Source of the DNA: a virus
Reading direction: 5' to 3' (one strand)
Length of the DNA stretch: 64,000 bases
Virus record (IMG/VR): IMGVR_UViG_3300021425_000006
Positions within the stretch are counted from its first letter, which is position 1, and every line of letters begins with the position of its first letter. The notes under the pieces are model-generated. The model ran no database searches, was not told the origin of the DNA, and saw only the letters and a program-made list of their open reading frames with translations. The position numbers were made by a program, and so were the translations under genes. Shown here piece after piece: positions 43,703 through 64,000 of this stretch.

Positions 43703-43716
43703 CTGTAAATACTTTT

Positions 43717-44055: not shown

Positions 44056-44063
44056 ATACTACT

Positions 44064-45644
44064 ATGAGTAAGAGTTTAGATGGTGTCCTCACCAAAAAAG
44101 CAAATCAAAAAGAAACGTTCAACGAAGAACAGATACAAGATCTGCAGGCATGCATGGACCCTGATGATGGGTATATGTACTTTGCACGGAAGTTTGCGTA
44201 CATACAGCATCCTGTACAAGGTAAACTTTTATTCGACCCTTACGAATATCAACTTCGCTTAATGGATTCATATCATAGTTATAGATTTAATATTAATATG
44301 ATGCCGAGGCAAACAGGTAAAACTACATGTGCGGCAATATACCTAGCATGGTATGCAATGTTTGTACCTGATCAAACTATACTAATTGCTGCACACAAGT
44401 ACACAGGTGCTCAAGAGATTATGGCACGTATTCGTTATGTGTATGAAACTTGTCCAGATCATATTAGAGCAGGTGTTACATCATACAACAAAGGCTCAAT
44501 TGAATTTGAAAACGGTAGTAGGATTGTAAGCCAAACAACTACTGGAAATACTGGACGTGGTATGTCCATATCATTACTATACTGTGACGAGTTTGCATTT
44601 GTGCAACCTAATATTGCAGAAGAATTTTGGACTTCAATATCACCTACACTAGCAACAGGTGGTCGTGCTATTATTACAAGTACACCAAACAGTGACGAAG
44701 ATACATTTGCTACTATCTGGAAACAAGCAGAAGATAAATTTGATTCACACGGTAACGAACAAGACGTAGGCATAAACGGCTTTCATAGTTTTGTTGCAGA
44801 ATGGCAAGAACATCCGGATAGAGACGAAGAATGGAAAGAAGCAGAAATTGGACGTATTGGCGAAGAAAAGTTTAGACGTGAATACGGCTGTGAATTCTTA
44901 GTATTTGATGAAACACTTATTAATAGTATATACTTGGCAAACATGGAAGGTCAAAGTCCAATACTAAACATGGGTCAAACACGCTGGTACAGTAAGCCAT
45001 CACCAGATTTTACATATGCAGTTGCACTTGATCCTAGCATGGGTACAGGCGGCGACAATGCGGCTATTGAAGTATATGAACTACCAAGTTATAAACAAGT
45101 AGCAGAATGGCAACACAATCAAACAGCAATACCTGGGCAAATTAGAGTACTTGCTGACATTTGTAAGTACATAGAAACTGAAACAGGAAATACTAATGGC
45201 ATTTACTGGTCTGTAGAAAATAACGGTATAGGCGAAGCTGCATTATTAGTTATTAACGACTTTGGGGAAGAAAACATACCGGGGTTATTTGTAAGCGAAC
45301 CTATGCGTAAAGGTCATGTACGTAAGTTTAGAAAAGGATTTAACACTACACATGGTACAAAGATTACTGCATGTAGTAGGCTAAAAACTATGATAGAAGG
45401 TGAAAAGATGTTTGTATCTAGTAAACCTCTAATATCAGAACTTAAAAATTATATTGCATCAGGGTCAAGTTATCAAGCAAAACCCGGAGCATCAGATGAC
45501 TTAATAAGTGCAACACTTTTAGCAATTAGAATGATGGCTGTACTAAAAGACTGGGATCCAAGAATATATAACACATTTAACCAAGCAGAAGATAATGAAG
45601 ATTACGAACCGCCAATGCCAATCTTCATTAGCTCAAACTATTAA
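44064..45644 (+). CDS. terL: Terminase large subunit (T4 gp17-like)
   Basis: Walker A PRQTGKT, Walker B LLYCDEFAF, ITSTPN, nuclease ALDPS.G.GGD, ENN, DDL. Confidence 0.95.
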   Translation: MSKSLDGVLTKKANQKETFNEEQIQDLQACMDPDDGYMYFARKFAYIQHPVQGKLLFDPYEYQLRLMDSYHSYRFNINMMPRQTGKTTCAAIYLAWYAMFVPDQTILIAAHKYTGAQEIMARIRYVYETCPDHIRAGVTSYNKGSIEFENGSRIVSQTTTGNTGRGMSISLLYCDEFAFVQPNIAEEFWTSISPTLATGGRAIITSTPNSDEDTFATIWKQAEDKFDSHGNEQDVGINGFHSFVAEWQEHPDRDEEWKEAEIGRIGEEKFRREYGCEFLVFDETLINSIYLANMEGQSPILNMGQTRWYSKPSPDFTYAVALDPSMGTGGDNAAIEVYELPSYKQVAEWQHNQTAIPGQIRVLADICKYIETETGNTNGIYWSVENNGIGEAALLVINDFGEENIPGLFVSEPMRKGHVRKFRKGFNTTHGTKITACSRLKTMIEGEKMFVSSKPLISELKNYIASGSSYQAKPGASDDLISATLLAIRMMAVLKDWDPRIYNTFNQAEDNEDYEPPMPIFISSNY

Positions 45645-45662
45645 AGAGTTGATAAATACAAT

Positions 45663-47771
45663 ATGCAAACATTAAATATAGTAGCCAAAGAATTATTTAA
45701 TAAGATAAGAGGACGCTTTCCAAGTGTTACTATTGGCGATGGTGAAGGTAATGTAACTACAACACCCGAACAGGCAAGATTTTATGACTTTGATTTTATA
45801 TCTGAAGGCAGAGCTGTAGGAAAAGTATCTATTAGTTTAGAAGATAAAGCAGTATCAGTAGTATATAATCAAGGACTAGTTACTAACGAAGATAGTATTA
45901 CTAAAGAAAGTTGGTATAATTTTTTAAAGGAATTAAGGCAATTTGCAAAAAAGCGTATGCTAAACTTTGATACTAGAGATATTAATAAATCAAATTTAAA
46001 TAGAAGAGATTACAAATTTTTAGCAAATAACCGTATAGAGGAAAAAACAATGAGCGAAGGAAAACTTTACGGTACAAGTAGATTAAGTTATCAAGACTTT
46101 GATGGCGCAAGGCTTGTATTACGTCATAGTCAGGCAGTAAACCAAGAAAGAGCTGCAGGCAGAACACAGAATGTCGAAAGCATCTATATAGAAAGTGCTG
46201 AAGGAGAAAGATTCAAGTATCCATACAAGCATATTAATGGTGCTAGAGCAATGGCAAGACACGTTGCTGAAGGCGGTAATGCTTATGATGATTTTGGTAA
46301 ACATATTGTAGGACTAAGTGAAGAACTATCTAAGTTAAAGAAATTTAAAAATTACATGGGTCGCTCAAATGTAATGGCTGAAAGTTTAGCTGGATATGTT
46401 GATGTTGTTAAAGAACGTTTATCAACAGTTAAAAAGACAATTGAAAGTTTACAAAAGAAAGCATACTATACAGAAGCATTTGAAAACTTTGAAAAAACTG
46501 AAGTAACAGAAGTACCACAAGATGTTGCAGAAAATTGGATTGATGAATTAACTATACGTCAGTTTAACGAAGAACTCAAAGATGTATTTCCATACATTTA
46601 TAATTTAGTAAGTGAAAATACTCGTGCAAAAGAATTAGGCCCAACAGACTTAGAAGGTTATGTTGTATACGAAGGCAAAGTAAGAGACGAGTTACAAGAT
46701 AACTTTGATGAGCTATGTGCAATGAAAGAAAACGGCGCAAGTGATAAAGAATTAAAAGCTGCTGCTGATAAGATGGCATTTGGCGGACAAGCACTTGAAG
46801 CATGTTTATCAGGTGCAGATAATCCGTTTGGTAGTGACGATCATATGGAGCCAGATTTTGAATCACAATTAGAAAACGGCTTTGAAGAAATGATGGGTCA
46901 GTTTGCCGAAGGTGCAGGTGAATACAGTTATACATTAGAATATAACGGTGAAGAAAATGGTTATGCAAAACATAAACTCACTATTACATCTCCAGAAGGG
47001 AAAACTAAAGTAGTTGCTGATGACTTTACATACTTTGATACTGAAGACCCAGAAGAACTACAAGCAGAATTAGAATCTTGGTTCAATAAAGGACACGGTG
47101 TAGGCGATGAAGGTATGGACGAAGGGTTTGATCCAGATGAATTTGAAGGCGAATTTGATTATGATGCTGTTGGTGACGACGGTGAAGAAGATTCAGCAAC
47201 AGTAACATACAAGGCTAACATTGACGATATGGGAAGACCAGTTGTTGATCCTAAATCAATTAAAGTACACGCTTCAGGTAATAATCCAAGTAGCAAATTA
47301 GGCTATGATGTTGACAGCGACACTGCAATGCAAGATATGAAAGAACTCCTACAAATGGCACAAGAAGATGCAGACGAAATGTGGGATTCACGTGATAACA
47401 AATATGCACACGGCGAAGGTAATGCATACGCACACGCTGTGAAGAAAGCAAAAGACAGTGGTAAGAAAAAGGGCGATGAAATTGATGGTCCAGATGGCGA
47501 AAAGATCAAGTTAGAAAAAGAAGAACAAAAGACACCATTAGGCGAGTTTATACTAAGTTACTTTGATAGAGAAACTGGACAGTTTCCAAAAGGCGAAACA
47601 GCAATACTTACTATGGTAGAAAAAGATTACGGTGAAAACTACATTACACCTGCAAAACAATTTATTGAAGCAATTAATAATAAAGTAGCAGAAGTAATGG
47701 GTTACAAAGAACAAGAAGACGAAATACAAACACCTGAACTAAGCAGAATTAGAGACTTAGCAGGACTTTAG
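45663..47771 (+). CDS. Large protein with acidic modular C-half, putative head core/structural protein
   Basis: GER...GARAMARH core; C-terminal ELSRIRDLAGL; late motif at 45653-45658. Confidence 0.55.
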   Translation: MQTLNIVAKELFNKIRGRFPSVTIGDGEGNVTTTPEQARFYDFDFISEGRAVGKVSISLEDKAVSVVYNQGLVTNEDSITKESWYNFLKELRQFAKKRMLNFDTRDINKSNLNRRDYKFLANNRIEEKTMSEGKLYGTSRLSYQDFDGARLVLRHSQAVNQERAAGRTQNVESIYIESAEGERFKYPYKHINGARAMARHVAEGGNAYDDFGKHIVGLSEELSKLKKFKNYMGRSNVMAESLAGYVDVVKERLSTVKKTIESLQKKAYYTEAFENFEKTEVTEVPQDVAENWIDELTIRQFNEELKDVFPYIYNLVSENTRAKELGPTDLEGYVVYEGKVRDELQDNFDELCAMKENGASDKELKAAADKMAFGGQALEACLSGADNPFGSDDHMEPDFESQLENGFEEMMGQFAEGAGEYSYTLEYNGEENGYAKHKLTITSPEGKTKVVADDFTYFDTEDPEELQAELESWFNKGHGVGDEGMDEGFDPDEFEGEFDYDAVGDDGEEDSATVTYKANIDDMGRPVVDPKSIKVHASGNNPSSKLGYDVDSDTAMQDMKELLQMAQEDADEMWDSRDNKYAHGEGNAYAHAVKKAKDSGKKKGDEIDGPDGEKIKLEKEEQKTPLGEFILSYFDRETGQFPKGETAILTMVEKDYGENYITPAKQFIEAINNKVAEVMGYKEQEDEIQTPELSRIRDLAGL

Positions 47772-50786: not shown

Positions 50787-50841
50787 TATTCTCTTACATA
50801 ATCCTGGTTGGTAAATATACATAATACACTAGGAGATCTTA

Positions 50842-51495
50842 ATGTTCGACGAATTCCAAAATTGGACTGTTCTAAAAGGTGATAGAACCTTAAAAAGAGC
50901 AATCCAAGCTCAAGGAACCGAAAACGTACTACAATACCAAAAAGAACAACTTGATATAGCATTAAGTTTTTGTGAAAACATGCGCCATGGAATTGACATT
51001 GGTGCAAATTATGGACTTATGTCTTACAACATGTCTCCGTATTTTGAACAAGTATCTTCTTTTGAAATAGTTCCTGAACTGAATCAATGTTTTAAAAAAA
51101 ATATGCAAAAGTTTGATATTCGAAATGTTAATATATATAATTGCGGTTTAGGTGATAGAGAAAAAGAAGTAGCAATAGACTTTGATCCTTTAAGCACGTT
51201 TAGGACCCATGTTGATAAAGACACAAAAGGTTCTATTAAAATAAGAACATTAGACAGTTACAATTTTGGAAATGTAGACTTTATTAAAATGGATGTTGAA
51301 GGATATGAGCCTTTAGTTGTTTATGGCGGAATGAAAACAATTGAAAAATTTAAACCTGTTATACTATACGAACAAAAAGGTCACGCTGAAAGATTTGGTT
51401 ATAGAAAAAATATTGTTATGGAACTGCTTAGGGATCTCAAATATAGAAAACTAGCAAACGTAGGATCTAAAAACGCACTAATAGGTGTTATATAA
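50842..51495 (+). CDS. FkbM-family methyltransferase
   Basis: IDIGANYG, FE, TLDS, FIKMDVEGYE. Confidence 0.88.
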   Translation: MFDEFQNWTVLKGDRTLKRAIQAQGTENVLQYQKEQLDIALSFCENMRHGIDIGANYGLMSYNMSPYFEQVSSFEIVPELNQCFKKNMQKFDIRNVNIYNCGLGDREKEVAIDFDPLSTFRTHVDKDTKGSIKIRTLDSYNFGNVDFIKMDVEGYEPLVVYGGMKTIEKFKPVILYEQKGHAERFGYRKNIVMELLRDLKYRKLANVGSKNALIGVI

Positions 51496-51510
51496 TGAAA
51501 TGGAGATTGA

Positions 51511-52065
51511 ATGGCACATTCTAATGAATATGTTGAAGAACTAAAAATACTACACAATAAAAAAACTTTTGGAGTAACTAAAGGAATACCATTAGTAGTT
51601 AATAAGTTAATTGAAGAAAAAAATATAAAAAGTTTTTTAGACTTTGGTGCTGGCAAAGGCGGCACTAGCGAATACATTAGAAATCAATATCCTAATGTTC
51701 TTTTACACACATTTGATCCTGCAACGTTTCCAAATCCTTTACCTGAAGAAGTTGAATTAATTTATAGTAGTGATGTGCTAGAGCATGTTGAAGAACATTT
51801 AATTGACGAAACATTACAAGACCTATGTAAGCGTTCTACTAGATATCAATATCATTTAATAGCATGTCATCCTGCAAAGAAAACATTAAGCGACGGACGT
51901 AATGCACATCTAATTATTGAAAAACCTAAATGGTGGAAACGTAAGATACAAGCAATACCTGATTGGAAAATTATACACGAAGATATAATGGATCATGTTG
52001 CACAACCAAAAAAAGGTCCACCTATTAATGTTGTAAAATATATTGTAATAATGGAAAAGTTATGA
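51511..52065 (+). CDS. Class I SAM-dependent methyltransferase
   Basis: LDFGAGKG, DP, DVLEHV, LSDGRNAHLI. Confidence 0.85.
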   Translation: MAHSNEYVEELKILHNKKTFGVTKGIPLVVNKLIEEKNIKSFLDFGAGKGGTSEYIRNQYPNVLLHTFDPATFPNPLPEEVELIYSSDVLEHVEEHLIDETLQDLCKRSTRYQYHLIACHPAKKTLSDGRNAHLIIEKPKWWKRKIQAIPDWKIIHEDIMDHVAQPKKGPPINVVKYIVIMEKL

Positions 52066-52682
52066 AGCAAGTATTTGAATACTGGATGCCGTCAACTGAC
52101 GACCATTTTGAAAGACTGATTAAAAAAAGAGTTCGTCGAGGCGGCCCTCCTGAATATCAAGATGATGTAAGAGAAGCAGCTTATCAACATGTTACTGACT
52201 TTAATGTATGTTTAGATATTGGAGCAAACGTTGGTCTTTGGGCTAAACCCTTAACTAGAAAATTTAATAAAGTTATTGCATTTGAACCTTTAGAACAAGT
52301 ATATTCTTGCTTAGAAAAAAACACACAAGGATTAAATGTTGAAATACATAAGTGTGCATTAGGTAATAAAAATTCAACTATTGATATGAAGTATGACAGT
52401 CATAATACTGGTGCTAGTCATGTTATCGAAGGGGAAGGATCTATTAATGTTCGACGTCTAGACGACATTGATTTACCAAAGTTCGGGCTAGTTAAGATTG
52501 ACTGTGAGCGTTATGAACTTGAAATACTTAAAGGTGCAATAGATACCTTGCTAAAATATAAGCCAATTGTAGTTTGTGAGCAACACCCAGATACAAATTA
52601 TTGTGCAGGTAAATTCTTAAAAGACCACGGTGCTGTTGAGCTTACTAATGTAAGAAAGGATTATGTGTTCGGTTGGGAATAA
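52062..52682 (+). CDS. FkbM-family methyltransferase
   Basis: LDIGANVG, AFEP, RLDD, KIDCE. Confidence 0.88.
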   Translation: MKQVFEYWMPSTDDHFERLIKKRVRRGGPPEYQDDVREAAYQHVTDFNVCLDIGANVGLWAKPLTRKFNKVIAFEPLEQVYSCLEKNTQGLNVEIHKCALGNKNSTIDMKYDSHNTGASHVIEGEGSINVRRLDDIDLPKFGLVKIDCERYELEILKGAIDTLLKYKPIVVCEQHPDTNYCAGKFLKDHGAVELTNVRKDYVFGWE

Positions 52683-52727
52683 CACCATAATATAGTTCCT
52701 ACCATTAAGTACGCACTAAATACTAGC

Positions 52728-53501
52728 ATGGAACGCATCGTATTAGTAACTGGCGGCTTTGACCCGCTTCACTCCGGACATATTGCTTATTTTAAAGAAG
52801 CAAAAAAATTAGGAACAAAACTAATTGTAGGAGTTAACTCAGACGAATGGTTAACTCGAAAGAAAGGCAGACCTTTTATGTCTTTCGAAGAACGCATTTC
52901 TATCATCAAAGAACTATCCATTGTTGATAAAGTAATTGGATTTGATGACAGCGACAATACTGCTTGTCATGCAATCTTCCACACGTTGAGTACACACGGT
53001 AGTGGAACTAAAGTAATCTTTGCTAACGGCGGAGATAGAACTAACGATAATATCCCAGAAATGAAAACATACGGCGATATGCCTTATGTAGATTTTGTAT
53101 TTGGTGTCGGTGGCACTGACAAGCAAAATAGTAGTAGCTGGATATTAGACGAATGGAAACAACCTAAAACAGATAGGAATTGGGGGTACTATAGAGTGTT
53201 ACATGAAAATGGAAAAGAAGTAAAAGTAAAAGAATTAACAGTTGATCCAGGACAAAAATTATCTATGCAACGGCATCAACACAGGAGTGAACATTGGTTT
53301 GTTAGTACAGGTACAGCAACCGTTTACACTTTAGATACATCAACTGATGTAGATTTATATGGAACATATAGAACACACGAGAGCTTACATATACCGCAAG
53401 GCATGTGGCATCAGTTAGCAAACGAAACAACAGAACCGTTAACACTAGTTGAAATACAGTATGGTACTGAATGCGTGGAGGAAGACATTGAGCGAAGATA
53501 A
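52728..53501 (+). CDS. Cytidylyltransferase-like (HxGH) domain fused to mannose-6-phosphate-isomerase-type cupin
   Basis: TGGFDPLHSGH, GVNSD, ANGGDR, SSS; RNWGYY...LSMQRHQHRSEHW...EIQYG..CVEEDIER. Confidence 0.85.
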   Translation: MERIVLVTGGFDPLHSGHIAYFKEAKKLGTKLIVGVNSDEWLTRKKGRPFMSFEERISIIKELSIVDKVIGFDDSDNTACHAIFHTLSTHGSGTKVIFANGGDRTNDNIPEMKTYGDMPYVDFVFGVGGTDKQNSSSWILDEWKQPKTDRNWGYYRVLHENGKEVKVKELTVDPGQKLSMQRHQHRSEHWFVSTGTATVYTLDTSTDVDLYGTYRTHESLHIPQGMWHQLANETTEPLTLVEIQYGTECVEEDIERR

Positions 53502-55191
53502 AATAAAAAAACAAAAACCGTTAAAAGTTTATGTAGGCTGGGACTCTAGAGAGCCTATTGCTTTTGAGGTTTGTAAGGCAAGCATACTAAAACATGCAAC
53601 AGTACCAGTTAAAATTGTGCCGTTAAAAAGACATAACCTTGTAAGAGATAATATGTATTGGCGAGAAGAAGATGCACTGGCTAGTACAGAATTTACATTT
53701 ACTAGATTCCTAGTTCCAGACTTAATGGGTCACAGAGGCTGGGCATTGTTTATTGACTGTGACTTTTTATTCTTGACCGACATTAAAGAATTGTTTGATC
53801 AGGTTAATGATAATTATGCTGTTATGTGTGTTCATCACGACTATACTCCTAAAGAAGGAGAAAAGATGGACGGAAAAAAACAACTTAACTATCCACGTAA
53901 AAACTGGTCAAGTGCTGTATTATGGAATTGCGGTCATCCTGATAATAAAGTTGTTGACAAAGAGTTAGTTAACGATCCTACTATAGACGGCAAGTATATG
54001 CATAGATTTAGTTGGCTTACTGATGACAAAATAGGAAAGATTAGTCACGAATGGAATTGGTTAGTTGGTTGGTATAAGCCTGTACGTGACGGACAACCAA
54101 AAGCATTACATTACACTGAAGGTGGTCCTTGGTTTGATCAATATCGTAATTGTCCATTTAGTAAAGAATGGTATGAAGCACAAGCGGCTATGTACGAAGA
54201 TAGAGTTAAAGAACTTACTCAAGAAGTAAAAGACTTAAAAAATAGAACAGTTGAGATAGACGAATTAACATTGCCTAAAGAAACTAAAACATTACTAAAT
54301 GCCTATTTACAAAATCTTATAGACCCAACAGAAGCAATTTACAAATCAAAAGAAACAATTAAACATATAACGGAGAAAAGAATGGGAGTAAAAGTAGCGG
54401 CTATCGCACCCGGCGCAGACGACTTTGATCTTGACAAGAAAGGATTAGAATATGATCCTTATTTGCAAGATTTCATTATAGGGTGTGGTGGTAACATTAG
54501 CGAGTTCAACTTGCAAGAAGGCACTAAAAACACCTTAGTTATAAGAGGTCTAGGCGGTGGAAGTCAGAAAGCATTAAAGTATTGTATAGAAAATAAAGTA
54601 GATTATTATGCAATTGATACAGGTTATTTACAACCGGGATCACGTAAAGACTACCACAGAGTCACAAAAAATAATCTACAAAACTTAGGTCCTATTGTTG
54701 ATCGAGATTTAGATCGACTTGGCAAACTTAATTGGAAATGGCGTAAGCCTAGAAAAAATAATAAGAAGATTTTAATTTGTCCGCCAAGCGAAAAGGTAAT
54801 GAAGTTTTACGGAGAAAACTTAGACGAGTGGTTAAAGAATACTGTTGACACAATTAAAACTTTAACTAATGCACCAATTGAAATTAGAAAGAAACCAGAC
54901 AGACGTATACGTGTTACTACAGATACAATATGGGACGCACTTGATACAGCGTCATGCCTTGTAACGTATAACAGTATTGCAGCAACAGAAGCTGTACTAC
55001 ATAGCATACCTGCTATTGCACTAGCACCAAATGCAGCTTCAGTACTATGTAGTAATAACTTACGTGATGTTGTAAGACCAGAAGTACCTGAAAAAGAAGA
55101 TGTTATAAGGTATGCGGCACATTTATCATACTGTCAATTTACAGCACAAGAATTAAGAACAGGCACTGCCTGGAAGTTACTTAATTCATGA
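53488..55191 (+). CDS. Two-domain glycosyltransferase (GT-A with DCD motif + capsule-synthesis-like GT-B)
   Basis: VGWDSRE, STEFTFTRF, FIDCDF, YPRKNWSS, HYTEGGPW; C-terminal VTYNS.AA.EAV...IPA; probable TTG start after GGAGG. Confidence 0.75.
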   Translation: MSEDKIKKQKPLKVYVGWDSREPIAFEVCKASILKHATVPVKIVPLKRHNLVRDNMYWREEDALASTEFTFTRFLVPDLMGHRGWALFIDCDFLFLTDIKELFDQVNDNYAVMCVHHDYTPKEGEKMDGKKQLNYPRKNWSSAVLWNCGHPDNKVVDKELVNDPTIDGKYMHRFSWLTDDKIGKISHEWNWLVGWYKPVRDGQPKALHYTEGGPWFDQYRNCPFSKEWYEAQAAMYEDRVKELTQEVKDLKNRTVEIDELTLPKETKTLLNAYLQNLIDPTEAIYKSKETIKHITEKRMGVKVAAIAPGADDFDLDKKGLEYDPYLQDFIIGCGGNISEFNLQEGTKNTLVIRGLGGGSQKALKYCIENKVDYYAIDTGYLQPGSRKDYHRVTKNNLQNLGPIVDRDLDRLGKLNWKWRKPRKNNKKILICPPSEKVMKFYGENLDEWLKNTVDTIKTLTNAPIEIRKKPDRRIRVTTDTIWDALDTASCLVTYNSIAATEAVLHSIPAIALAPNAASVLCSNNLRDVVRPEVPEKEDVIRYAAHLSYCQFTAQELRTGTAWKLLNS

Positions 55192-56117
55192 AAGTTGTAA
55201 GTTATTTGAAAACTGTTCCTGCTGGAAACAGAAACCTGCAAAAACCTGAATTGTTAAGACAATTTGTTAACGGTGTTAATGCCGCTGGCGACATTGGTAT
55301 TTTGCATGATCAAAATAACTTAATAGATTGTGACGTTGGTATGATTCAAGGTTGGGTCTATGACAAAACTACTACTGAGCATTTGCGTCTACGTAAAACA
55401 ATTATAAAAACACAAAAACTTACTGGCAAGCATTCTGCTACAGCAGATGCTAATTTATTTTTGTATCACGATAAAACAAACCCACATGGATATTTACGTT
55501 ACAGTTTTAACGGTGTATTTCCTAGTACAGGAGAATATTGTGATAGCGAAATAGATCCTACACGGTGGACACAAATATCTCAAGATACAGGAATAAAATT
55601 AGAACCATATAAATTAACAGGCGGCCATATTGTATTAATGTTACAACGAAATGGCGGCTGGAGTATGGGCGGACTAAATGTAGAAACGTGGGCACTAAAG
55701 ACTATTGCTAATATAAGACGTTATACAGATAGACATATTATTATACGCTCACACCCCGGTGATCGATTTGCAAAGAATTATTTAAAAACTCTACATGCTA
55801 ACTTAAAAGGTCAGCCTTCAATATCAATATCAAAGATTGGTACACCTTACGAACAAGACATGCGTAATGCATGGGCAGTAGTTAATCACAATAGTAGTGC
55901 AGCTGTTGGACCTATTATAAACGGCTATCATTGTTTCTTAACTGACCCGAGAAATAGTCAGTGTTCTGAAGTATCAAACACAGACTTTAAACATATTGAA
56001 AAGCCATTAGAATATGATAGAGAACGTTGGTTACAACGTATTAGTATGATGCATTGGAAATTTAGTGAATTAACAAACGGATCTTGTTGGCGTCATATGA
56101 GACAGTTTATCTCCTAG
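55188..56117 (+). CDS. Capsule-synthesis (KpsS/KpsC-like) GT-B glycosyltransferase
   Basis: LMLQ...IIIRSHP...VVNHNSSAAV..IING. Confidence 0.55.
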   Translation: MKVVSYLKTVPAGNRNLQKPELLRQFVNGVNAAGDIGILHDQNNLIDCDVGMIQGWVYDKTTTEHLRLRKTIIKTQKLTGKHSATADANLFLYHDKTNPHGYLRYSFNGVFPSTGEYCDSEIDPTRWTQISQDTGIKLEPYKLTGGHIVLMLQRNGGWSMGGLNVETWALKTIANIRRYTDRHIIIRSHPGDRFAKNYLKTLHANLKGQPSISISKIGTPYEQDMRNAWAVVNHNSSAAVGPIINGYHCFLTDPRNSQCSEVSNTDFKHIEKPLEYDRERWLQRISMMHWKFSELTNGSCWRHMRQFIS

Positions 56118-56955
56118 TCCAATAGGACTCAGTTCTATTAACCATAATATCTTTAGGTAAACTTTTTCCTGTATTTTTACGATCACCTTTCATGTGATCA
56201 ATCCATTTACCAAGTATAGTATTAATTAACGGATGTCCGCCGCCGCCTGTTTTTGCTTCTCGAAGATACATTTCTGCACTGTAATCAAATGCATTAGGAA
56301 AGTCTGATTTAAATCTATTTAGAATATTACCAAACACAAAACTGTCATGCCATTCTTCTAATAAAAATATACCTTCTTCTGCTTGTTCGTATACACGTTC
56401 AAACTCTTTTAAGAACTCGTGACACACAGGATGATTAAGATTCATTCCATAAAATCCGCACTCTGGCCATGTCTGTGATCCTTTGCCTCGACCAACATAT
56501 GTAATCCATTGATTGTCTGGTAAGCATTCTTTAAACTCATTGTATGACCAATTACTGTGTACAAACGTATCTGCATCCATCCACACACACCAGCCCTTAG
56601 AGCGTTCACAAGCGTCATACACAGCATATGTCTTATTAGCAAAGCGTATAGCGTCCCACTTAAATGCTTTATGGTGATCACGCGGTCTACGTGCTTTAAT
56701 ATCTTGTGGAGGTATGCCGTTTGCTTTAGGCACATCTTTCCAACGCTCTTTAAAAGCATTTAGTTTAGGCAATGCTTCTTTTGCGTCGAGTATCGTAATC
56801 TGTTCTGGATTAGGATTTATAGGGTTACAGTCCTCAGCATATACCAGTAACTTAATTCTACTATCAACTTTTTCTGCAAAACTATCTAAAAATCTTTGTC
56901 CGTATAATGTTAGTCCTGGTTGGTGAAAAGTTGTAACCACAGTTATGTCAGTCAT
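56107..56955 (-). CDS. GT-A glycosyltransferase
   Basis: RFANK.YA, WMDAD DxD motif, ECGF, EWHDS, DHMKG. Confidence 0.7.
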   Translation of the reverse strand: MTDITVVTTFHQPGLTLYGQRFLDSFAEKVDSRIKLLVYAEDCNPINPNPEQITILDAKEALPKLNAFKERWKDVPKANGIPPQDIKARRPRDHHKAFKWDAIRFANKTYAVYDACERSKGWCVWMDADTFVHSNWSYNEFKECLPDNQWITYVGRGKGSQTWPECGFYGMNLNHPVCHEFLKEFERVYEQAEEGIFLLEEWHDSFVFGNILNRFKSDFPNAFDYSAEMYLREAKTGGGGHPLINTILGKWIDHMKGDRKNTGKSLPKDIMVNRTESYWTRR

Positions 56956-56967
56956 TCGTTAATCCTC

Positions 56968-56991
56968 TTAAATACTATATAAGGTATTTAA
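56968..56991. promoter_or_regulatory. Face-to-face pair of late promoters
   Basis: TTAAATAC (+, 56968-75) and GTATTTAA (-, 56984-91) between divergent GT genes. Confidence 0.65.
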
Positions 56992-56993
56992 CA

Positions 56994-57869
56994 ATGATTT
57001 TTTGTCTCTACACTGATTATGGCGCACTAAATAGCAAGCCAATTTTTGAAGCATTTGCCAAAAGTGTAACCGATGCTGGCCATACAGTCATATATAATGA
57101 GCCCTATAGAGTTATGTCGCATTATAAAAACTATGACGTTGCCGTTATATGGAGTGTTCTATGGAACGGACGAATGGCACAAAACAAGACGGTATGGGAA
57201 CAGAATCGTTTATTAGATAGACCGGTTATAGTATTAGAAGTGGGCGGCATAAAAAGAGGCACAACATGGAAGGTCGGATTAAATGGCATTAACAAAGATG
57301 CTTATTTTGGCAATGCTACTCGAGGTAGTAATCGTGCTAAACGCTTTGGTTTAGAACTTAAACCTTGGCGAACTGAAGGCGAATATATTCTTATTTGTGG
57401 GCAACACGACAAGAGTCTGCAATGGGCAGGCATGCCTCCAATGAGCCAATGGGTTCAAAAGACTATTACAGAAATACAACAATATACAAATCGTCCTATA
57501 ATATTTAGGCCTCATCCTAGATGTCCATTGCCTCATATAGAACATGAATTTAAAAATGTATTAAGGCAAGACCCACGTAAACTTACCGGCACATATGACG
57601 ACTTTGATATGAAGTTTGACAACATATGGGCTACAGTAAGTTGGTCTAGTAATCCAGGCATACACAGTATTATAAACGGTGTACCTGCATTTGTAGGACC
57701 ATCAAGTTTAGCATGGAATGTTGCTAATGCATCGTTAGAAGATATCGAAGATCCACATATGGGTGCAAGAGAAGAATGGCTCGAAGAGTATGCACACACC
57801 GAGCATACTATAGATGAAATAGCTCAAGGTATTCCGTTAAATCACTTATTAAACCAATTATCTTCTTGA
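56994..57869 (+). CDS. Capsule-synthesis (KpsS/KpsC-like) GT-B glycosyltransferase
   Basis: LICGQ...IIFRPHP...VSWSSNPGIHSIINGVPAF; paralogous to 55188-56117. Confidence 0.55.
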   Translation: MIFCLYTDYGALNSKPIFEAFAKSVTDAGHTVIYNEPYRVMSHYKNYDVAVIWSVLWNGRMAQNKTVWEQNRLLDRPVIVLEVGGIKRGTTWKVGLNGINKDAYFGNATRGSNRAKRFGLELKPWRTEGEYILICGQHDKSLQWAGMPPMSQWVQKTITEIQQYTNRPIIFRPHPRCPLPHIEHEFKNVLRQDPRKLTGTYDDFDMKFDNIWATVSWSSNPGIHSIINGVPAFVGPSSLAWNVANASLEDIEDPHMGAREEWLEEYAHTEHTIDEIAQGIPLNHLLNQLSS

Positions 57870-57894
57870 CTTTACAAGCATTTTGTTATAAAAT
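57866..57894 (+). promoter_or_regulatory. sigma70-type promoter
   Basis: TTGACT(57866-71)-17 nt-TAAAAT(57889-94). Confidence 0.65.
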
Positions 57895-57923
57895 ATATGT
57901 ATTAGTTGAGGAGAACTATACCC

Positions 57924-59129
57924 ATGAAAACTTGCGAAGATTGCTTAGAGTTATTAATAGGATTACATACAGGTCCTAAGTTCGATGTTGAATCGCCAGA
58001 TGTTAATTTTCTAGGTAGTATTGCTAGACAAACTTTTAGAGGTATTGGTTTTACAGATCGTCAATATGAAGCTGTTAAAGAAAAATTAACAGGAACATAT
58101 CAATCACAATTTGTAGAACACAATATAGATCTTAATGAGTGTATTAACACATTAAGAATTCCGTTAAGAAAGTTAGATCGAGCAAAATGGATCAAAGTAA
58201 TTGACAACGGGCAGGATGAACCTTATATTGGTGTACGATTTGTTTTTAGTAAAAAATTAATTGCTAAAAAAGAAAATTTAAAAAACAAAGTTGTGCATCT
58301 TGGATACGATAAACTTGAAAAGGTACATTCGTTCCAACTAACTGAATCTGCTATCTATCAAATAGTAGAAGAATTTAAAAATTCGCACTTTGATATTGAG
58401 GAACAATTACTTAACCAACATAGGAAGATAACAGAAATAATGCAAAACAAGAAAGACTATATTCCTGGTATATATAATTTTAATCTTAAGAACTTACATC
58501 AGAACGGTGTTAACTACGTTGTGTCAGCGTTAGGAGAACCGACGCCTAATAACTTATATAAGTTTTATGATAGAAGAGAATTACTAGGCCTATCTCACTT
58601 TGATCAAAATGACTTAGAACAAACTTTAAAATCTTTATTACCGTTAACTAAACGATTAATTCAACGAGAACAAACACATGTCTTAGTTAAGCCGTCTGAA
58701 TTTACTATTCATAATTTAGTAGAAACTATACTAGAATTATTTCGCTTTCCACTAGTAATTGTTCTAAATGAAAAGTATGCAAGAGACGAGCTTTACGAAT
58801 TTAATAGAGCATTTAACGGAATTATACCAAGTGATAATATGTCTGTTATGTTTAGATTAGAAAATAAAGAACCAGATGCAGTAGAGTTTAATCGCTATAT
58901 CAAAGAGAATAATTTAAACAATCCGGTTGACAAAAATACCAAAATAGTGTATATTAGTAATAATAAAGTTCCAAAACCGTTATTGACATCTGACTGGGTG
59001 CCAATCACAGGCATTACAACTGAGTCAAGGCAGCCACCTAAGATAGAAACTTATTTAGGTGCTCTTGATTTAGTGATGCATTACGACAACGATGTAGTAT
59101 GGAGAGGAAGTACAGTAGAAAAAATATGA
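57924..59129 (+). CDS. Hypothetical protein coupled to UvsW
   Basis: GAGGAG SD; ATGA overlap with helicase. Confidence 0.7.
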   Translation: MKTCEDCLELLIGLHTGPKFDVESPDVNFLGSIARQTFRGIGFTDRQYEAVKEKLTGTYQSQFVEHNIDLNECINTLRIPLRKLDRAKWIKVIDNGQDEPYIGVRFVFSKKLIAKKENLKNKVVHLGYDKLEKVHSFQLTESAIYQIVEEFKNSHFDIEEQLLNQHRKITEIMQNKKDYIPGIYNFNLKNLHQNGVNYVVSALGEPTPNNLYKFYDRRELLGLSHFDQNDLEQTLKSLLPLTKRLIQREQTHVLVKPSEFTIHNLVETILELFRFPLVIVLNEKYARDELYEFNRAFNGIIPSDNMSVMFRLENKEPDAVEFNRYIKENNLNNPVDKNTKIVYISNNKVPKPLLTSDWVPITGITTESRQPPKIETYLGALDLVMHYDNDVVWRGSTVEKI

Positions 59130-60586
59130 GTTGTAGATTAATAATACAAGACGAAGTAAACATTAAACTAGAAGGTTTAGATGTAGATGTACGCCGTAAA
59201 TTATCAAATGCATTGAAGTTTGAAGTACCATATGCAAGGTATATGCCGCAATATAAACTAGGTCGTTGGGACGGCAAGGTTGCATTTTTTGGTATAGGTG
59301 GTACAGGTTATGTTAATCATTTAGACACAGTAGTTTCAATATTACAAAAAGAAAATGTTGAAATAGTAGACATTGTAGATCAAAGACATCCTATACAATT
59401 AAACTTCACCCCAGTAACAAAAGATTACTGGAAGGATCGAGGCATCCAATGGCCTAAAGGTCACCCTGCAGAAGGTGAAGACATTATTCTACGTGACTAT
59501 CAGGTTGAAGCCATCAACAACTTCCTTGATAATCCGCAGAGCTTGCAACAGATTGCAACTGGTGCAGGTAAAACTATTACCACAGCAACATTAAGTCATA
59601 TCAGTGAGCCTTACGGACGTAGTCTTGTAATTGTGCCAAATAAATCTCTTGTTGAACAAACGGAAGAGGATTATATAAACTGTGGACTCGACGTCGGTGT
59701 ATACTTTGGTGATAGGAAACAACTTGGCAAGACTCATACTATTTGTACTTGGCAGAGCTTAAACATTTTAGACAAGAAAACTAAAGATGGTTCTGCTGTG
59801 CTGAGTCTTGCTGAATTTTTAGAAGGTGTAAGCACAATTATTATTGACGAAGTACACCAAGCAAAAGCAGAAGTATTAAAAAAATTACTTACACAAAACT
59901 TACGTAATGCTCCAATACGTTGGGGACTTACTGGAACTATTCCAAAAGAAAAGTTTGAGTTTGAAAGTATACATGCAAGTATTGGACCAGTCATTGGACA
60001 AATTACTGCAAAAGAATTACAAGACAAAGGTGTACTTGCTGAATGTCATGTTAATGTAGTACAGTTAATCGATGTTGTTGAACACAGAGATTATCAATCA
60101 GAATTAAAATATCTAGTAACAGATAGTAATAGGTTAGAATATATAGGCAAATTATTAAACACAGTTTCTCAATCAGGCAACACTTTAATATTAGTAGATA
60201 GAATTAGTGCAGGACAACAGTTAGCGGATCTTATTCCTGGTAGTACATTTGTTAGCGGCACAGTTAAAGTTAAAGACAGAAAAGAAACATACGACGAGAT
60301 TAAGGAAGGTACTAACAAAGTTATTATTGCTACATACGGTGTAGCAGCTGTTGGACTTAACATTCCTAGAATTTTCAATCTTGTACTTATTGAACCTGGC
60401 AAAAGTTTTGTTAGGGTTATACAAAGTATAGGTAGAGGCGTAAGAAAGGCAAAGGACAAAGACTTCGTGCAAATATGGGATTTAACATCTACATGTAAGT
60501 ATGCGAAGAGACATTTAACACAACGAAAAAAATTCTATAAGGAAGCACAATATCCTTTCACTATAGAAAAAGTAGAATGGAATTAA
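59126..60586 (+). CDS. uvsW: SF2 DNA helicase UvsW-like
   Basis: WDGK, LRDYQ, ATGAGKT, DEVH, GLTGT, QSIGRGVR. Confidence 0.92.
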   Translation: MSCRLIIQDEVNIKLEGLDVDVRRKLSNALKFEVPYARYMPQYKLGRWDGKVAFFGIGGTGYVNHLDTVVSILQKENVEIVDIVDQRHPIQLNFTPVTKDYWKDRGIQWPKGHPAEGEDIILRDYQVEAINNFLDNPQSLQQIATGAGKTITTATLSHISEPYGRSLVIVPNKSLVEQTEEDYINCGLDVGVYFGDRKQLGKTHTICTWQSLNILDKKTKDGSAVLSLAEFLEGVSTIIIDEVHQAKAEVLKKLLTQNLRNAPIRWGLTGTIPKEKFEFESIHASIGPVIGQITAKELQDKGVLAECHVNVVQLIDVVEHRDYQSELKYLVTDSNRLEYIGKLLNTVSQSGNTLILVDRISAGQQLADLIPGSTFVSGTVKVKDRKETYDEIKEGTNKVIIATYGVAAVGLNIPRIFNLVLIEPGKSFVRVIQSIGRGVRKAKDKDFVQIWDLTSTCKYAKRHLTQRKKFYKEAQYPFTIEKVEWN

Positions 60587-60589
60587 CAT

Positions 60590-61096
60590 ATGAGAATATT
60601 AACGCTAGAAAATAAATCGTTTGAACTAAACGATATGCCAGAACAGATTGAAGATGAAATACGATTTGCTGTATTAGATAACAGCGATCCTAGTAACACT
60701 GATTTCTTTTTTGTACCAATGATCTTTTTAGAATCATTTAGTGCGCCAGCAATGGTAATGGAAATTAATGGAAAAGAAATAATGATGCCAGTTGATTGGA
60801 GCATTGCAGTAGGTGATAGTGAAAGTGGATCTGACTTAGAAGTACTACCACTAACAAGTATTAATGATAGAGGATTTGAAGCATTCCTCTTTAATCCGTT
60901 AACAAGTTTTAAAGTTGACTTTGGCACTGTAAAGATTACTAACTTTTACTCAGATGTAAAATGGTATTTTCCAAAAGTAAAGAACGGACAGTTACTTTCA
61001 ATACCTATTACAGAAGGCGACAATCCTTTGTGTGCATTTTTTATTAAAGAGATAAGCAGACAAAGTGAAGTTATAGACTTTGGTCAGTTATTATAA
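60590..61096 (+). CDS. Hypothetical beta-rich protein
   Basis: ORF directly after uvsW. Confidence 0.65.
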   Translation: MRILTLENKSFELNDMPEQIEDEIRFAVLDNSDPSNTDFFFVPMIFLESFSAPAMVMEINGKEIMMPVDWSIAVGDSESGSDLEVLPLTSINDRGFEAFLFNPLTSFKVDFGTVKITNFYSDVKWYFPKVKNGQLLSIPITEGDNPLCAFFIKEISRQSEVIDFGQLL

Positions 61097-61106
61097 GGAG
61101 AAACAC

Positions 61107-61463
61107 ATGACTTTAAAAGCAGGAAAAATATGGGGTCAAACAGAACTGATTCACGCAAACGGTGTACTAGAGTTTCATCGTATTGAATATAAAGGTGGAT
61201 TTAAATGTTCAGAACACGAACACAAATTTAAATGGAACGGCTTCTTTGTTGAGTCAGGCAAGATGTTAGTACGTGTTTGGCAAGACGATCAAGAAGGATT
61301 AGTTGATGAAACTATTTTAAATCCAGGAGACTTTATGCAAGTAAAGCCAGGCAAAGTACATCAGTTTGAAGGAATAGAAGACGGTGTAGCATTTGAACTA
61401 TACTGGGCAGAGTTTAATCACGATGATATTGTTAGACGTACAGTAGGAAGTCCAGTTAAGTAA
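61107..61463 (+). CDS. Cupin-fold protein (sugar isomerase-like)
   Basis: KIWG, CSEHEH, FFVESG, PGKVHQF; AAGGAG SD. Confidence 0.75.
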   Translation: MTLKAGKIWGQTELIHANGVLEFHRIEYKGGFKCSEHEHKFKWNGFFVESGKMLVRVWQDDQEGLVDETILNPGDFMQVKPGKVHQFEGIEDGVAFELYWAEFNHDDIVRRTVGSPVK

Positions 61464-61990
61464 TGTACAGTAAAAAGTACATAGAAGAGCTTCGTATAAT
61501 ACATGCTGACAAAACACGACTCAAAGGGTTTGGCGGCAAGATGAAAGACTTAGGTGAATTTCATACTTATATGGACAAATGGAAGCCTTCTAGTGTACTC
61601 GACTACGGCTGTGGTAAAGGTACTATACTTGGTAAATTAAAAGAACAGTATCCAGACACAGGCTTTGCAGGATATGATCCTGCTGTAGTTTATTATGCAA
61701 ATGGTGCAACTGAAGTAGACTGTGTATTCAGCAACGATGTATTAGAACACATTGAGCCTGAATTTATTGGGCAAGTATTACATCATATAGATACACTTGC
61801 TAACAAGTACATATGGTTGCGTATCGATACACTACCAGCTCGTAAAAGATTATCAGACGGTCGCAATGCTCATTTAATAATTGAAGACCAAGACTGGTGG
61901 ACTGAAATGATACAACACAGCATAGACGGAATTGTAGTTTATAATAATGTTAATAAAAAAGGTAAACTAGATGTCGCAATCGAAAAATAA
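61463..61990 (+). CDS. Class I SAM-dependent methyltransferase, paralogue of 51511-52065
   Basis: LDYGCGKG, YDP, DVLEHIE, LSDGRNAHLI. Confidence 0.85.
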   Translation: MYSKKYIEELRIIHADKTRLKGFGGKMKDLGEFHTYMDKWKPSSVLDYGCGKGTILGKLKEQYPDTGFAGYDPAVVYYANGATEVDCVFSNDVLEHIEPEFIGQVLHHIDTLANKYIWLRIDTLPARKRLSDGRNAHLIIEDQDWWTEMIQHSIDGIVVYNNVNKKGKLDVAIEK

Positions 61991-62252
61991 AATGGTACCA
62001 GGTGCCGCACTAATATACGAACGTAACGACGGAGTTGTATATGCAAGATATAGAGACGCACCGCATAATAAATTACCACGTTGGATTATAGGTGGTGACC
62101 CAGCAGGGGTTGCTAGAGCACAAGGCGATTTGTTAAGTTATGCCGAATGGCAAGAATTGTGCGAACTATCAGAAGTTTATCCAACTTTAAAAAAATTATT
62201 AGATCAACTAGTAACAACATACTATACTGTTAAAGAAACTCAACATAACTGA
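61971..62252 (+). CDS. Hypothetical protein
   Basis: IYER.DGVVYAR motif; tightly packed. Confidence 0.6.
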   Translation: MSQSKNKMVPGAALIYERNDGVVYARYRDAPHNKLPRWIIGGDPAGVARAQGDLLSYAEWQELCELSEVYPTLKKLLDQLVTTYYTVKETQHN

Positions 62253-62265
62253 GTAAGGGGTTAAT

Positions 62266-63360
62266 ATGAACAATTATATTTTTACAAGCGAAAGCGTAAG
62301 CAACGGACACCCAGATAAGGTAGCTGATCAAATTAGTGATGCACTTGTTGACGCTGGTCTAAAAGCAGGAGACGAAACTACTCGTGTTGCTGTAGAAACA
62401 CTAGTAACTACTAACATGGTAACGTTAGCTGGAGAAGTAAAGAACTTTAATGTAAGCAAAGACGAAGTAAAAGAAATTGTCCGAAACAAAGTTAAAGAAA
62501 TTGGTTATGAACAAGATGGCTTTCATTGGGAGAACTTAAAAATTTATAATGAAATACATAATCAAAGTTCGGACATTGCATTAGGTACAGACGACTTTGG
62601 GGCAGGCGACCAAGGACTTATGTTTGGATATGCCTGCAACGATAATGAAGCATATATGCCTGCTCCAATATATTATGCACACAATATTTTAGAAACATTA
62701 AATACTGTTAGAAAAACTGTAGACTTTTTAGGACCAGATGCAAAGTCACAAGTAAGTATAGAGTATCAAGGACACAAACCAAAACGTGTTGATCAAATTG
62801 TTATCAGCACACAACACGCCGAAGGCAAAAACGACATAGCTTCGGCACTAGCACAACAGTCAGCAGTTGCTGTATTAGGAGACTTAATCGATGAAAAAAC
62901 TACATGGCATCTTAACCCTACTGGAAATTTCGTTATTGGTGGTCCTGACGGTGATGCAGGTGTTACTGGGCGGAAAATTATTGTTGATACTTATGGGGGT
63001 TTTGCTCCTCATGGTGGCGGTGCGTTTAGTGGCAAAGATCCCACCAAAGTCGACAGAAGTGCAGCCTACATGGCACGATGGCTCGCCAAAAATGTAGTAG
63101 CAGATGACATGGCAGATTGGTGCCAGATTCAACTAAGTTATGCAATTGGTGTTAAAGAACCTACTAGCATCTATGTTGACAGCAACGGACATAATCGAAG
63201 TATTGAAAAGTTTATTCGTAACGAAATTGATCTAACACCTAAAGGAATAATTGATAGATTTGATCTGTTTAACTTCCATGAGTATAGTGCTAATTGCGTA
63301 TACGGACATTTCGGAAATAAAGATGTTCCTTGGGAACAAATAGGATGGGAGAAATCATGA
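62266..63360 (+). CDS. metK: S-adenosylmethionine synthetase
   Basis: FTSESV..GHPDK.ADQISD, GAGDQG, GRKIIVDTYGG, GGGAFSGKD.TKVDRSAAY. Confidence 0.97.
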   Translation: MNNYIFTSESVSNGHPDKVADQISDALVDAGLKAGDETTRVAVETLVTTNMVTLAGEVKNFNVSKDEVKEIVRNKVKEIGYEQDGFHWENLKIYNEIHNQSSDIALGTDDFGAGDQGLMFGYACNDNEAYMPAPIYYAHNILETLNTVRKTVDFLGPDAKSQVSIEYQGHKPKRVDQIVISTQHAEGKNDIASALAQQSAVAVLGDLIDEKTTWHLNPTGNFVIGGPDGDAGVTGRKIIVDTYGGFAPHGGGAFSGKDPTKVDRSAAYMARWLAKNVVADDMADWCQIQLSYAIGVKEPTSIYVDSNGHNRSIEKFIRNEIDLTPKGIIDRFDLFNFHEYSANCVYGHFGNKDVPWEQIGWEKS

Positions 63361-63515
63361 GTGACAAACAATGGGTAGATGACAGTTTAATGTTAACTAA
63401 GTTGCACGACTTAGCAAGAGAACAAGATAGTAAAGAGCTACGAGAAATAGCAGACAGGTTTAGTGATCTAATAAACCGAGCTCAAGGTCGTAGACATTGG
63501 ACTGGCAATGAATAA
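63357..63515 (+). CDS. Small hypothetical protein
   Basis: ATGA overlap with metK stop; GGGAG SD. Confidence 0.55.
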   Translation: MSDKQWVDDSLMLTKLHDLAREQDSKELREIADRFSDLINRAQGRRHWTGNE

Positions 63516-63639
63516 ATGTAGTACATGTGGTGAAAGGGTATTTGAAATAAAGTATCATACCCCAGATCACCAACATGTATTTTGTGATGCATATTGCTCA
63601 CATGAATATTATAAACAAAGGAGAGACGATGAGACATAG
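63508..63639 (+). CDS. 43-aa Cys-rich protein (TRASH/YHS-like), absent from the ORF track
   Basis: MNKCSTCGERVFEIKYHTPDHQHVFCDAYCSHEYYKQRRDDET, overlapping both neighbours. Confidence 0.55.
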   Translation: MNKCSTCGERVFEIKYHTPDHQHVFCDAYCSHEYYKQRRDDET

Positions 63640-63853
63640 GATAGCAGGAGTAATCTTCCTAGCATTAGGAGTTTATTTTTTTATGCAAGATATGTTACCA
63701 CACTCAATGGGTGCTGGAGCAGCAATGGAAATGAATAATTCAACACATAGTAATACATTACTAGGCTTAGGAGAAATGACATGGATGTGGTTTACAATGG
63801 CACTTGTACATTTCTTTATACGTGATTGTAATTGTAAGGAGTGTTGCAAATGA
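63629..63853 (+). CDS. Small two-TM membrane protein, Met/His-rich loop, Cys-rich tail
   Basis: AAGGAG SD; two hydrophobic segments. Confidence 0.6.
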   Translation: MRHRIAGVIFLALGVYFFMQDMLPHSMGAGAAMEMNNSTHSNTLLGLGEMTWMWFTMALVHFFIRDCNCKECCK

Positions 63854-64000
63854 GAATAATTGCAGGACCGTGTCAACACGAATCACTAGATAAAAGTTAT
63901 GAAATTGCTAAAGAATGTAAACGTGTGTGCGATAAACTTGGCATTGAGTATTATTTCAAAGCAAGTTATGATAAAGCAAATCGCACAAGTGCATCTGGTA
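63850..64000 (+). CDS. kdsA: 3-deoxy-D-manno-octulosonate 8-phosphate synthase, 3'-truncated; absent from the ORF track
   Basis: MRIIAGPCQHES...YFKASYDKANRTS signature. Confidence 0.88.
   Translation, partial: MRIIAGPCQHESLDKSYEIAKECKRVCDKLGIEYYFKASYDKANRTSASG

Follow-up and report, generated by a model that had tools for sequence, protein, structure and literature searches.

Virus-encoded machineries build the capsid glycans of chloroviruses, with their O-methylated sugars, and the fibrils of mimivirus, and glycosylate the capsids and tails of mycobacteriophages. [quoted passage not shown] In the Kdo transferases KpsC, WbbB and KrkA a QXXXD and an HP motif recur, of which the Gln binds the Kdo carboxylate, the HP binds cytidine monophosphate (CMP) and the Asp is a covalent nucleophile that is absolutely conserved in the glycosyltransferase families GT99, GT107 and GT140 (PMC12887879, PMC10148158); the general base of KpsC is Glu66 (PMC10148158). 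Here we describe relatives of these enzymes in a gene cassette at positions 50,812-64,000 of a 64,000-nucleotide stretch of viral DNA (IMG/VR record IMGVR_UViG_3300021425_000006, all of it referred to as the window) from an uncultured aquatic jumbo myophage of the T4 superfamily. A preliminary description of this DNA had listed GT-A and GT-B domains, methyltransferases, cupins, metK and kdsA, every one of which is present in the window. Our preferred explanation, which we rate a little short of an even chance, is that this conserved jumbo-phage cassette builds a tailored, probably Kdo-containing oligosaccharide in the cytoplasm of the infected cell, with virion proteins as the likeliest acceptor.

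The glycosyltransferase domains lie in four consecutive genes:

53449-55191, plus strand: 580-residue fusion of an N-terminal GT8-like GT-A domain (DxD) and a C-terminal KpsC-fold paralogue without the Gln and His-Pro (Pfam, PHROG, blastp, motif alignment)
55188-56117, plus strand: paralogue of KpsC/WbbB fold and predicted CMP-sugar transferase; Gln and RxHP retained, Gly where the nucleophile would be (blastp 4e-17 to 56994-57869, motif alignment)
56107-56955, minus strand: predicted retaining-type GT-A glycosyltransferase of GT6/GT8-like fold (model with a mean confidence, pLDDT, of 89.8; Foldseek; D127/D129)
56994-57869, plus strand: predicted KpsC/WbbB-fold CMP-sugar transferase with Q137, R172-x-H174-P175 and E82, and Ser141 for the Asp nucleophile (model, fold searches, profile against the PDB)

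The three GT-B-like domains, namely residues ~330-580 of the 580-residue protein and the products of 55188-56117 and 56994-57869, are paralogous (blastp 4e-17 and 3e-8), two with a Q...RxHP signature and all with an NS/SS motif, as had been noticed before. For the 56994-57869 protein ~4,000 homologues were found at E ≤0.001 and no Pfam domain in any of them; a library clustered at 50% holds 2,462 representatives. Single-sequence searches of the PDB with the three unassigned window proteins returned noise only; the profile of a family alignment of 88 diverse homologues found KpsC as its best match (E 3.4e-4), and KpsC or WbbB made up seven of the eight other matches with E up to 1. The AlphaFold model of the 56994-57869 protein (pLDDT 95.6) adopts the modified GT-B fold of the KpsC/WbbB/KrkA type: Foldseek ranks 1-27 are all chains of KpsC, WbbB or KrkA, these three enzymes are found in the top 15 entries and a clear gap separates them from generic GT-B enzymes, at a sequence identity to enzymes of this type of just 12-16%. 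By profile and by fold, the GT-B domains are thus related to Kdo transferases, as the preliminary description had supposed, so that the refuting condition which it had set, a lack of such kinship, does not apply.

In the hidden Markov model alignment to KpsC, Q137 falls on the Gln, the HP on the HP, E82 on Glu66 (in a stretch that scores near zero alone) and Ser141 on Asp160. Q137 and H174 are invariant in all 88 homologues, R172, P175 and several other residues are nearly so (H174-P175 is invariant or kept in 86 of 88), and position 82 is acidic in 87. The nucleophile column holds Ser in 55 representatives, Asp in 25, Gly in 5, Cys in 2 and Asn in 1, the Asp-bearing ones being more distant members of the family; ten of these that we looked up are metagenomic records only. 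At this position, orthologues at ~55% identity carry Ser throughout the 56994 group and Gly throughout the 55188 group. RSHP is present in the 55188-56117 protein, and all relatives examined of the C-terminal domain of the 580-residue protein have PPS(E/D/Q)K for GQxxx, with Pro for Gln, and RxK (RxKP) for RxH. 

The Asp of QXXXD is absent from all three window domains (Ser, Gly and no motif, respectively), which are therefore not ordinary enzymes of the KpsS/KpsC type. They differ from KpsC/KpsS (GT107), the N-terminal module of WbbB (GT99) and KrkA (GT140) in having Ser (56994-57869) or Gly (55188-56117) for the Asp, in a third copy without Gln and His, and in being phage-encoded behind a promoter motif of virion genes. 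Judging by these residues, the products of 55188-56117 and 56994-57869 look catalytically equipped but would be unable to use the known double-displacement chemistry, and the degenerate third domain is probably not catalytic in the manner of a Kdo transferase. We found no paper describing the 56994-57869 family or its altered nucleophile. A further-reaching idea, which we regard as unlikely, is that a very large, virus-rich branch of the Kdo-transferase fold exchanged Asp for Ser (or occasionally Cys) and thereby acquired a new catalysis of ulosonic-acid transfer, which would serve jumbo phages, and perhaps giant viruses of algae, together with CMP-Kdo of their own, to put a methylated Kdo coat on the virion. 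As a separate observation, two family representatives carry Cys at the residue-141 column; an Asp-to-Cys exchange at the nucleophile of KpsC, WbbB and KrkA traps a stable Kdo adduct.

The relatives compared come from IMG/VR, in which hundreds of contigs of up to 342 kb are related to this phage: a 37-kb contig 98% identical to the window (G001), a cassette-bearing relative of 330 kb that is 93% complete and includes locus L085 (G002), another of 342 kb that is 92% complete (G003), and the loci L005, L007, L009, L015, L038, L041, L042, L044 and L061. In the window the virion genes (fibres, baseplate parts, sheath, tube, terminase and others) occupy positions 1-47771 and are followed by genes for a gp32-like single-stranded DNA-binding protein and UvsX, the latter best matched in jumbo phages, among them Atu_ph07, GAP32 and Vibrio phage 2.275.O; a megablast comparison of the region with a collection of isolated phages gave no match. 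The 3' edge of the window cuts the gene that begins Kdo synthesis:

63841-64000, plus strand: 5' end of kdsA (Kdo-8-phosphate synthase), its first 53 codons, cut by the window end (full gene in G001)

In G001 the complete KdsA has 257 residues and passes the cut-offs of two NCBIfam equivalogs (NF003543, 340 bits against 242; TIGR01362, 329 against 314), and a kdsB-like gene comes after it. The five best NCBIfam models for the product of this gene are all KdsB (E 4e-51 to 4e-35), each under its curated cut-off, and Pfam CTP_transf_3 scores 95.6 bits, above its cut-off. The phage-borne Kdo supply that had been proposed is in this respect upheld, kdsA being followed by a kdsB-like gene, one of those that the preliminary description had proposed to look for; the others, kdsC and kdsD, were not found downstream, the two genes 3' of kdsB in G001 being without HAD or SIS features and neither KdsC nor an SIS-type KdsD being found anywhere in G002. 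The phage would therefore depend on a host that makes Kdo. Two arrangements of these genes stand apart: in G002 kdsA and kdsB are separated by an inserted gene of the OmpA family (peptidoglycan-binding; L085:16574-17086), and at L041:207-11158 metK, kdsA and kdsB lie amid three radical-SAM/SPASM-like genes, a PNP_UDP_1 nucleosidase-like gene and a small cytidylyltransferase, with a NodU/CmcH-type carbamoyltransferase and an FkbM methyltransferase as further neighbours.

Of the two GT-A domains that had been recognised, at the N-terminus of the 580-residue protein and in the minus-strand gene, both hold. The former carries DCD and matches Pfam GT8 (PF01501) marginally, at 24.4 bits against a cut-off of 24.3, and PHROG 28018 at 3e-51; it and the degenerate domain are encoded by separate genes in L038, G002 and Pelagibacter phage Mosig. 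The minus-strand product has no match in the domain and family libraries; among the Foldseek matches listed for its model all are GT-A transferases, nearly all of them retaining GT6/GT8 enzymes, and D127-x-D129 is invariant among the relatives aligned, from which we predict a retaining-type GT-A glycosyltransferase. These genes are flanked by candidates for the supply and tailoring of building blocks:

50842-51495, plus strand: MT1, FkbM-family methyltransferase (Pfam PF05050, 1e-11; TIGR01444, 72.6 bits against a cut-off of 37.7)
51511-52065, plus strand: MT2, class-I S-adenosylmethionine (SAM) methyltransferase, paralogue of MT4 (PHROG 24759, 7e-15; Methyltransf_23 below cut-off)
52062-52682, plus strand: MT3, FkbM-family methyltransferase, paralogue of MT1 (TIGR01444, 95 bits against a cut-off of 37.7)
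52728-53501, plus strand: fusion of an HxGH nucleotidyltransferase (RfaE-II/TagD-like) and a type-II phosphomannose-isomerase (PMI-type) cupin (PF01467, 5e-15; PF01050, 9e-26; NCBIfam and PDB relatives)
61080-61463, plus strand: small cupin that accompanies the cassette in relatives (Cupin_2, 33 bits; synteny)
61463-61990, plus strand: MT4, class-I SAM methyltransferase, paralogue of MT2 (Methyltransf_23, 34.1 bits against a cut-off of 27)
62266-63360, plus strand: MetK, S-adenosylmethionine synthetase (three Pfam domains, 2e-57, 1e-37 and 2e-33)

The four methyltransferases do form the two paralogous pairs reported before (blastp 9e-25 for the FkbM pair, 3e-30 for the class-I pair). The presumed product of the nucleotidyltransferase-cupin fusion is a second activated sugar or alcohol phosphate; we also considered the cupins as substitutes for arabinose-5-phosphate isomerase and found no supporting evidence. 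The metK gene is a lineage-wide phage gene that lies beside the cassette here but is not part of it: it was found in 459 related viral loci, the cassette adjoins it in a minority of them only, and in G002 the two are ~160 kb apart. Because metK is lineage-wide and distant from the cassette in G002, it is not a dedicated SAM supply, and the idea that the cassette carries its own has to be given up.

The cassette is divided between two kinds of promoter motif:

50812-50817, plus strand: late-type TAAATA, 24 nucleotides 5' of MT1 (same hexamer as before virion genes)
52717-52722, plus strand: TAAATA, 5 nucleotides before the ATG of the nucleotidyltransferase-cupin gene, leaderless-type (conserved in L038, L042 and G002)
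56969-56990, both strands: divergent TAAATA pair (56969, plus; 56990-56985, minus) in the 38-nucleotide spacer 56956-56993 between the GT-A and KpsC-like genes (conserved in L009, L015 and G002)
57866-57894, plus strand: sigma70-like promoter TTGACT-17-TAAAAT at the head of a tight operon from 57906 to kdsA/kdsB (conserved in L009, L015, L038, L042 and G002)

Many virion genes, such as those for tail fibre, sheath, tube and terminase, have TAAATA 4-48 nucleotides upstream. The hexamer occurs in 17 of 59 upstream windows of 60 nucleotides, a modest enrichment that places it at the top of 15 hexamers of the same composition, the next reaching 12; at the nucleotidyltransferase gene and in the divergent spacer it is kept in relatives at ~55% protein identity. 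The sigma70-type site before 57906 has the form TTGAC(T/A)-17-TA-rich in the window and five relatives and heads a gap-free run of genes that includes uvsW, the cupin, MT4, metK, kdsA and kdsB. A generic sigma70 consensus scan of the region gave 50 sites against 63.6 expected, hence no enrichment, and we use only the site at 57866, which is intergenic and conserved. The preliminary description had put the glycosyltransferase and methyltransferase genes behind late motifs, which is true of the transferases and of MT1-MT3; MT4 follows the sigma70-like promoter, and it shares this operon with uvsW and with kdsA, kdsB, metK and the second cupin, none of which is headed by a late motif. The sigma70-type operon is presumably early, and to judge from these motifs precursor supply appears to be early and glycan assembly to coincide with virion synthesis. 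At window positions 43706-45666 and 52717-52730, genes that include those for the large terminase and the nucleotidyltransferase-cupin have their ATG 4-5 nucleotides after TAAATA, with no room for a Shine-Dalgarno sequence, which suggests leaderless late mRNAs.

Relatives at ~55% identity conserve a core order of nucleotidyltransferase-cupin, GT8, degenerate domain, paralogue, GT-A and paralogue, which G002 continues with an unassigned gene, uvsW, the cupin, kdsA and kdsB. The kdsA/kdsB pair and the KpsC-like trio are found together in L005, L007, L015, L042, L044 and G002, and G003 has neither. The tailoring genes differ, with FkbM and class-I methyltransferases in the window, a rhamnosyl-O-methyltransferase-like gene, GT25 and a class-I methyltransferase in G002, and a carbamoyltransferase and an FkbM gene in L041, all those compared being of sugar-modifying types; such a fixed core with varying tailoring genes is, by gene content, the pattern of a variable glycan locus. 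Homologous genes in the same order occur in a cluster of Pelagibacter phage Mosig EXVC030M (Kyanoviridae) and around the glycosyltransferase pair of Caulobacter jumbo phages (CcrColossus group), which share with the window the methyltransferases, a GT-A of the 56107-56955 type, a GT8-like GT-A and the KpsC-like paralogues; the annotation of these clusters goes no further than hypothetical proteins or glycosyltransferases, and they have been read as O-antigen modification (PMC7029224). Unlike the window phage, these phages have no kdsA/kdsB that we could find, and Mosig adds a sulfotransferase. Phage kdsA/kdsB and phage LPS-like (lipopolysaccharide-like) glycosyltransferases have been reported previously: Synechococcus phage S-SCSM2R likewise has a KdsA and KdsB pair in a glycosyltransferase-rich genome, read as cell-wall modification genes (PMC12801897). 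Its GT8-like gene shares 47% identity with the N-terminus of the 580-residue protein, its KdsA is only 39% identical, and tblastn found no KpsC-like relative in it.

The distribution of these genes bears on a reading that we hold to be quite improbable, namely that the KpsC-fold proteins use another CMP-ulosonic acid or some other donor and that kdsA/kdsB are auxiliary metabolic genes which sustain host Kdo and LPS and merely sit in the same variable island. The HP motif is also found in CMP-sialic-acid transferases (PMC10148158) and one member of the 56994-57869 family matches a polysialyltransferase Pfam, but the closest folds are, by a clear margin, Kdo transferases and not sialyltransferases, and no genes for nonulosonic-acid synthesis were seen. 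The defining Asp is absent, as such a reading would have it, but the Gln that binds the Kdo carboxylate is invariant. Transferase modules occur without kdsA/kdsB in other phages, and kdsA/kdsB form a separate transcription unit, but the pair and the trio have been gained or lost together between G002 and G003.

In the Kdo-containing glycan model that we prefer, the early sigma70-type operon would supply the precursors: KdsA and the KdsB-like cytidylyltransferase would yield CMP-Kdo, with arabinose-5-phosphate and the Kdo-8-phosphate phosphatase step left to a Gram-negative host, and MetK, adjacent here, would raise SAM. The TAAATA-headed operons would then provide the assembly enzymes, among which the nucleotidyltransferase-isomerase fusion would make a second activated building block and the two retaining GT-A transferases would join in assembly with the two KpsC/WbbB-fold transferases. 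The latter retain the Gln that would bind the carboxylate, the His-Pro that would bind CMP and an acidic residue where the general base is expected; with Ser or Gly for the Asp nucleophile they would have to follow an altered chemistry, either a direct inverting displacement or one with a different nucleophile. The degenerate third copy, fused to one GT-A, would probably be an acceptor-binding or scaffolding module, and the FkbM and class-I methyltransferases would O-methylate the sugars.

Several results weigh against this model. Without the Asp nucleophile, Kdo transfer is not assured. None of the three window domains matches Capsule_synth (PF05159), a comparison that had been proposed, at E ≤0.01 and only 6 of the 88 family members do (best 9e-5), with another Pfam family, DUF6716, matching 8 of 88. 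The KdsB-like protein scores below the curated NCBIfam cut-offs. In the stretch of L041 examined, kdsA/kdsB occur without the KpsC-like trio; Pelagibacter phage Mosig, the Caulobacter jumbo phages and L061, and also a freshwater podophage, have homologous transferase modules but no kdsA/kdsB. The timing is read from motifs only, and the window proteins include no Thr/Ser-rich candidate acceptor (at most 17 of 40 residues), with none adjacent to the transferases.

As to the acceptor, a glycan on virion proteins is the reading that we rate most likely. The late-type TAAATA motifs before the transferase genes point to the virion, and the genes scanned in the cassette and its flanks include none recognisable as coding for an ABC exporter, a flippase or a ligase. 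In BFVD, the KpsC-like fold is shared by four proteins of Tetraselmis virus 1, a giant virus of algae (template-modelling score up to 0.80), two of which bear the name capsule polysaccharide biosynthesis protein, and by a CcrColossus protein; given its occurrence in Tetraselmis virus 1, the fold is not confined to the assembly of bacterial envelopes. The concept would be the same as in the chlorovirus, mimivirus and mycobacteriophage systems, with their own nucleotide-sugar synthesis, transferases and methyltransferases for the particle; the enzyme families and sugars differ, and the only tested link to virus glycosylation systems is the structural similarity to the four Tetraselmis virus 1 proteins. 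In the theca of the host of Tetraselmis virus 1 there are 2-keto sugar acids of the Kdo type, among them a 5-O-methyl form (PMC10762512).

The same genes could also serve to remodel the host envelope, in that Kdo and methyl groups would modify or prematurely cap a lipid-linked glycan of the host such as LPS or capsule. The altered cell surface might, for instance, exclude superinfecting phages or keep progeny from sticking to debris; this is a strong rival, which we consider somewhat unlikely. Kdo and methyl groups are natural chain terminators in ABC-transporter O-antigen pathways. The nearest solved relatives of the KpsC-like proteins work on lipid- or undecaprenyl-linked glycans, but their fold is also found in a giant virus of a green alga, and no flippase, ABC exporter or ligase was seen among the genes scanned. 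GT8, GT25 and FkbM/RfbT-type enzymes are typical of LPS loci, the OmpA-family gene lies between kdsA and kdsB in G002, the phage relies on host steps in the Kdo pathway, and similar genes have been read in this sense in pelagimyophages (PMC7029224) and in cyanophage S-SCSM2R (PMC12801897); the transferase genes, however, stand behind a virion-type motif and not an early promoter, which is late for a surface change in a lytic infection.

That the transferases put Kdo and other sugars on phage DNA, to be methylated thereafter as a defence against host nucleases, we judge highly improbable. The cassette is located amid genes of recombination and replication (uvsX, uvsW), but its transferases follow a late-type motif. 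A preprint describes modification of 5-hydroxymethylcytosine by a phage GT-B enzyme, the added mass being assigned to Kdo, and a cytidylyltransferase-dependent heptose pathway (bioRxiv 10.1101/2023.12.21.572611); the DNA enzymes reported are T4 beta-glucosyltransferase-like, whereas the top matches of the 56994-57869 family are KpsC, WbbB and KrkA. Moreover, no source of a 5-hydroxymethyl pyrimidine was found in G002, which is without a ThyA-family hydroxymethylase, a TET/JBP dioxygenase or a C5-methyltransferase for such a base, the TET part of this result being weak because the TET model matched no control genome.

With a phage that makes CMP-Kdo and has divergent Kdo-transferase-like enzymes of its own, the glycans built by viruses would come to include an acidic bacterial sugar. 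The 56994-57869 family is abundant in aquatic metagenomes, where its homologues are up to 70-90% identical; the Asp-to-Ser exchange at its nucleophile position poses a directly testable question of glycosyltransferase mechanism, and the identity of the acceptor bears on how abundant aquatic jumbo phages evade recognition or interact with their hosts.

Further genes accompany those for precursor supply. Inside the sigma70-type operon, on either side of uvsW, a 407-residue gene without a family match (window 57906-59129) and a 168-residue gene of PHROG 11279 (window 60590-61096) keep their place in all cassette-bearing relatives. Between metK and kdsA lie two small overlapping open reading frames (window 63508-63639 and 63575-63853), one Cys/His-rich (43 residues) and one hydrophobic with a Cys-rich end (92 residues), both conserved in the closest relatives only.

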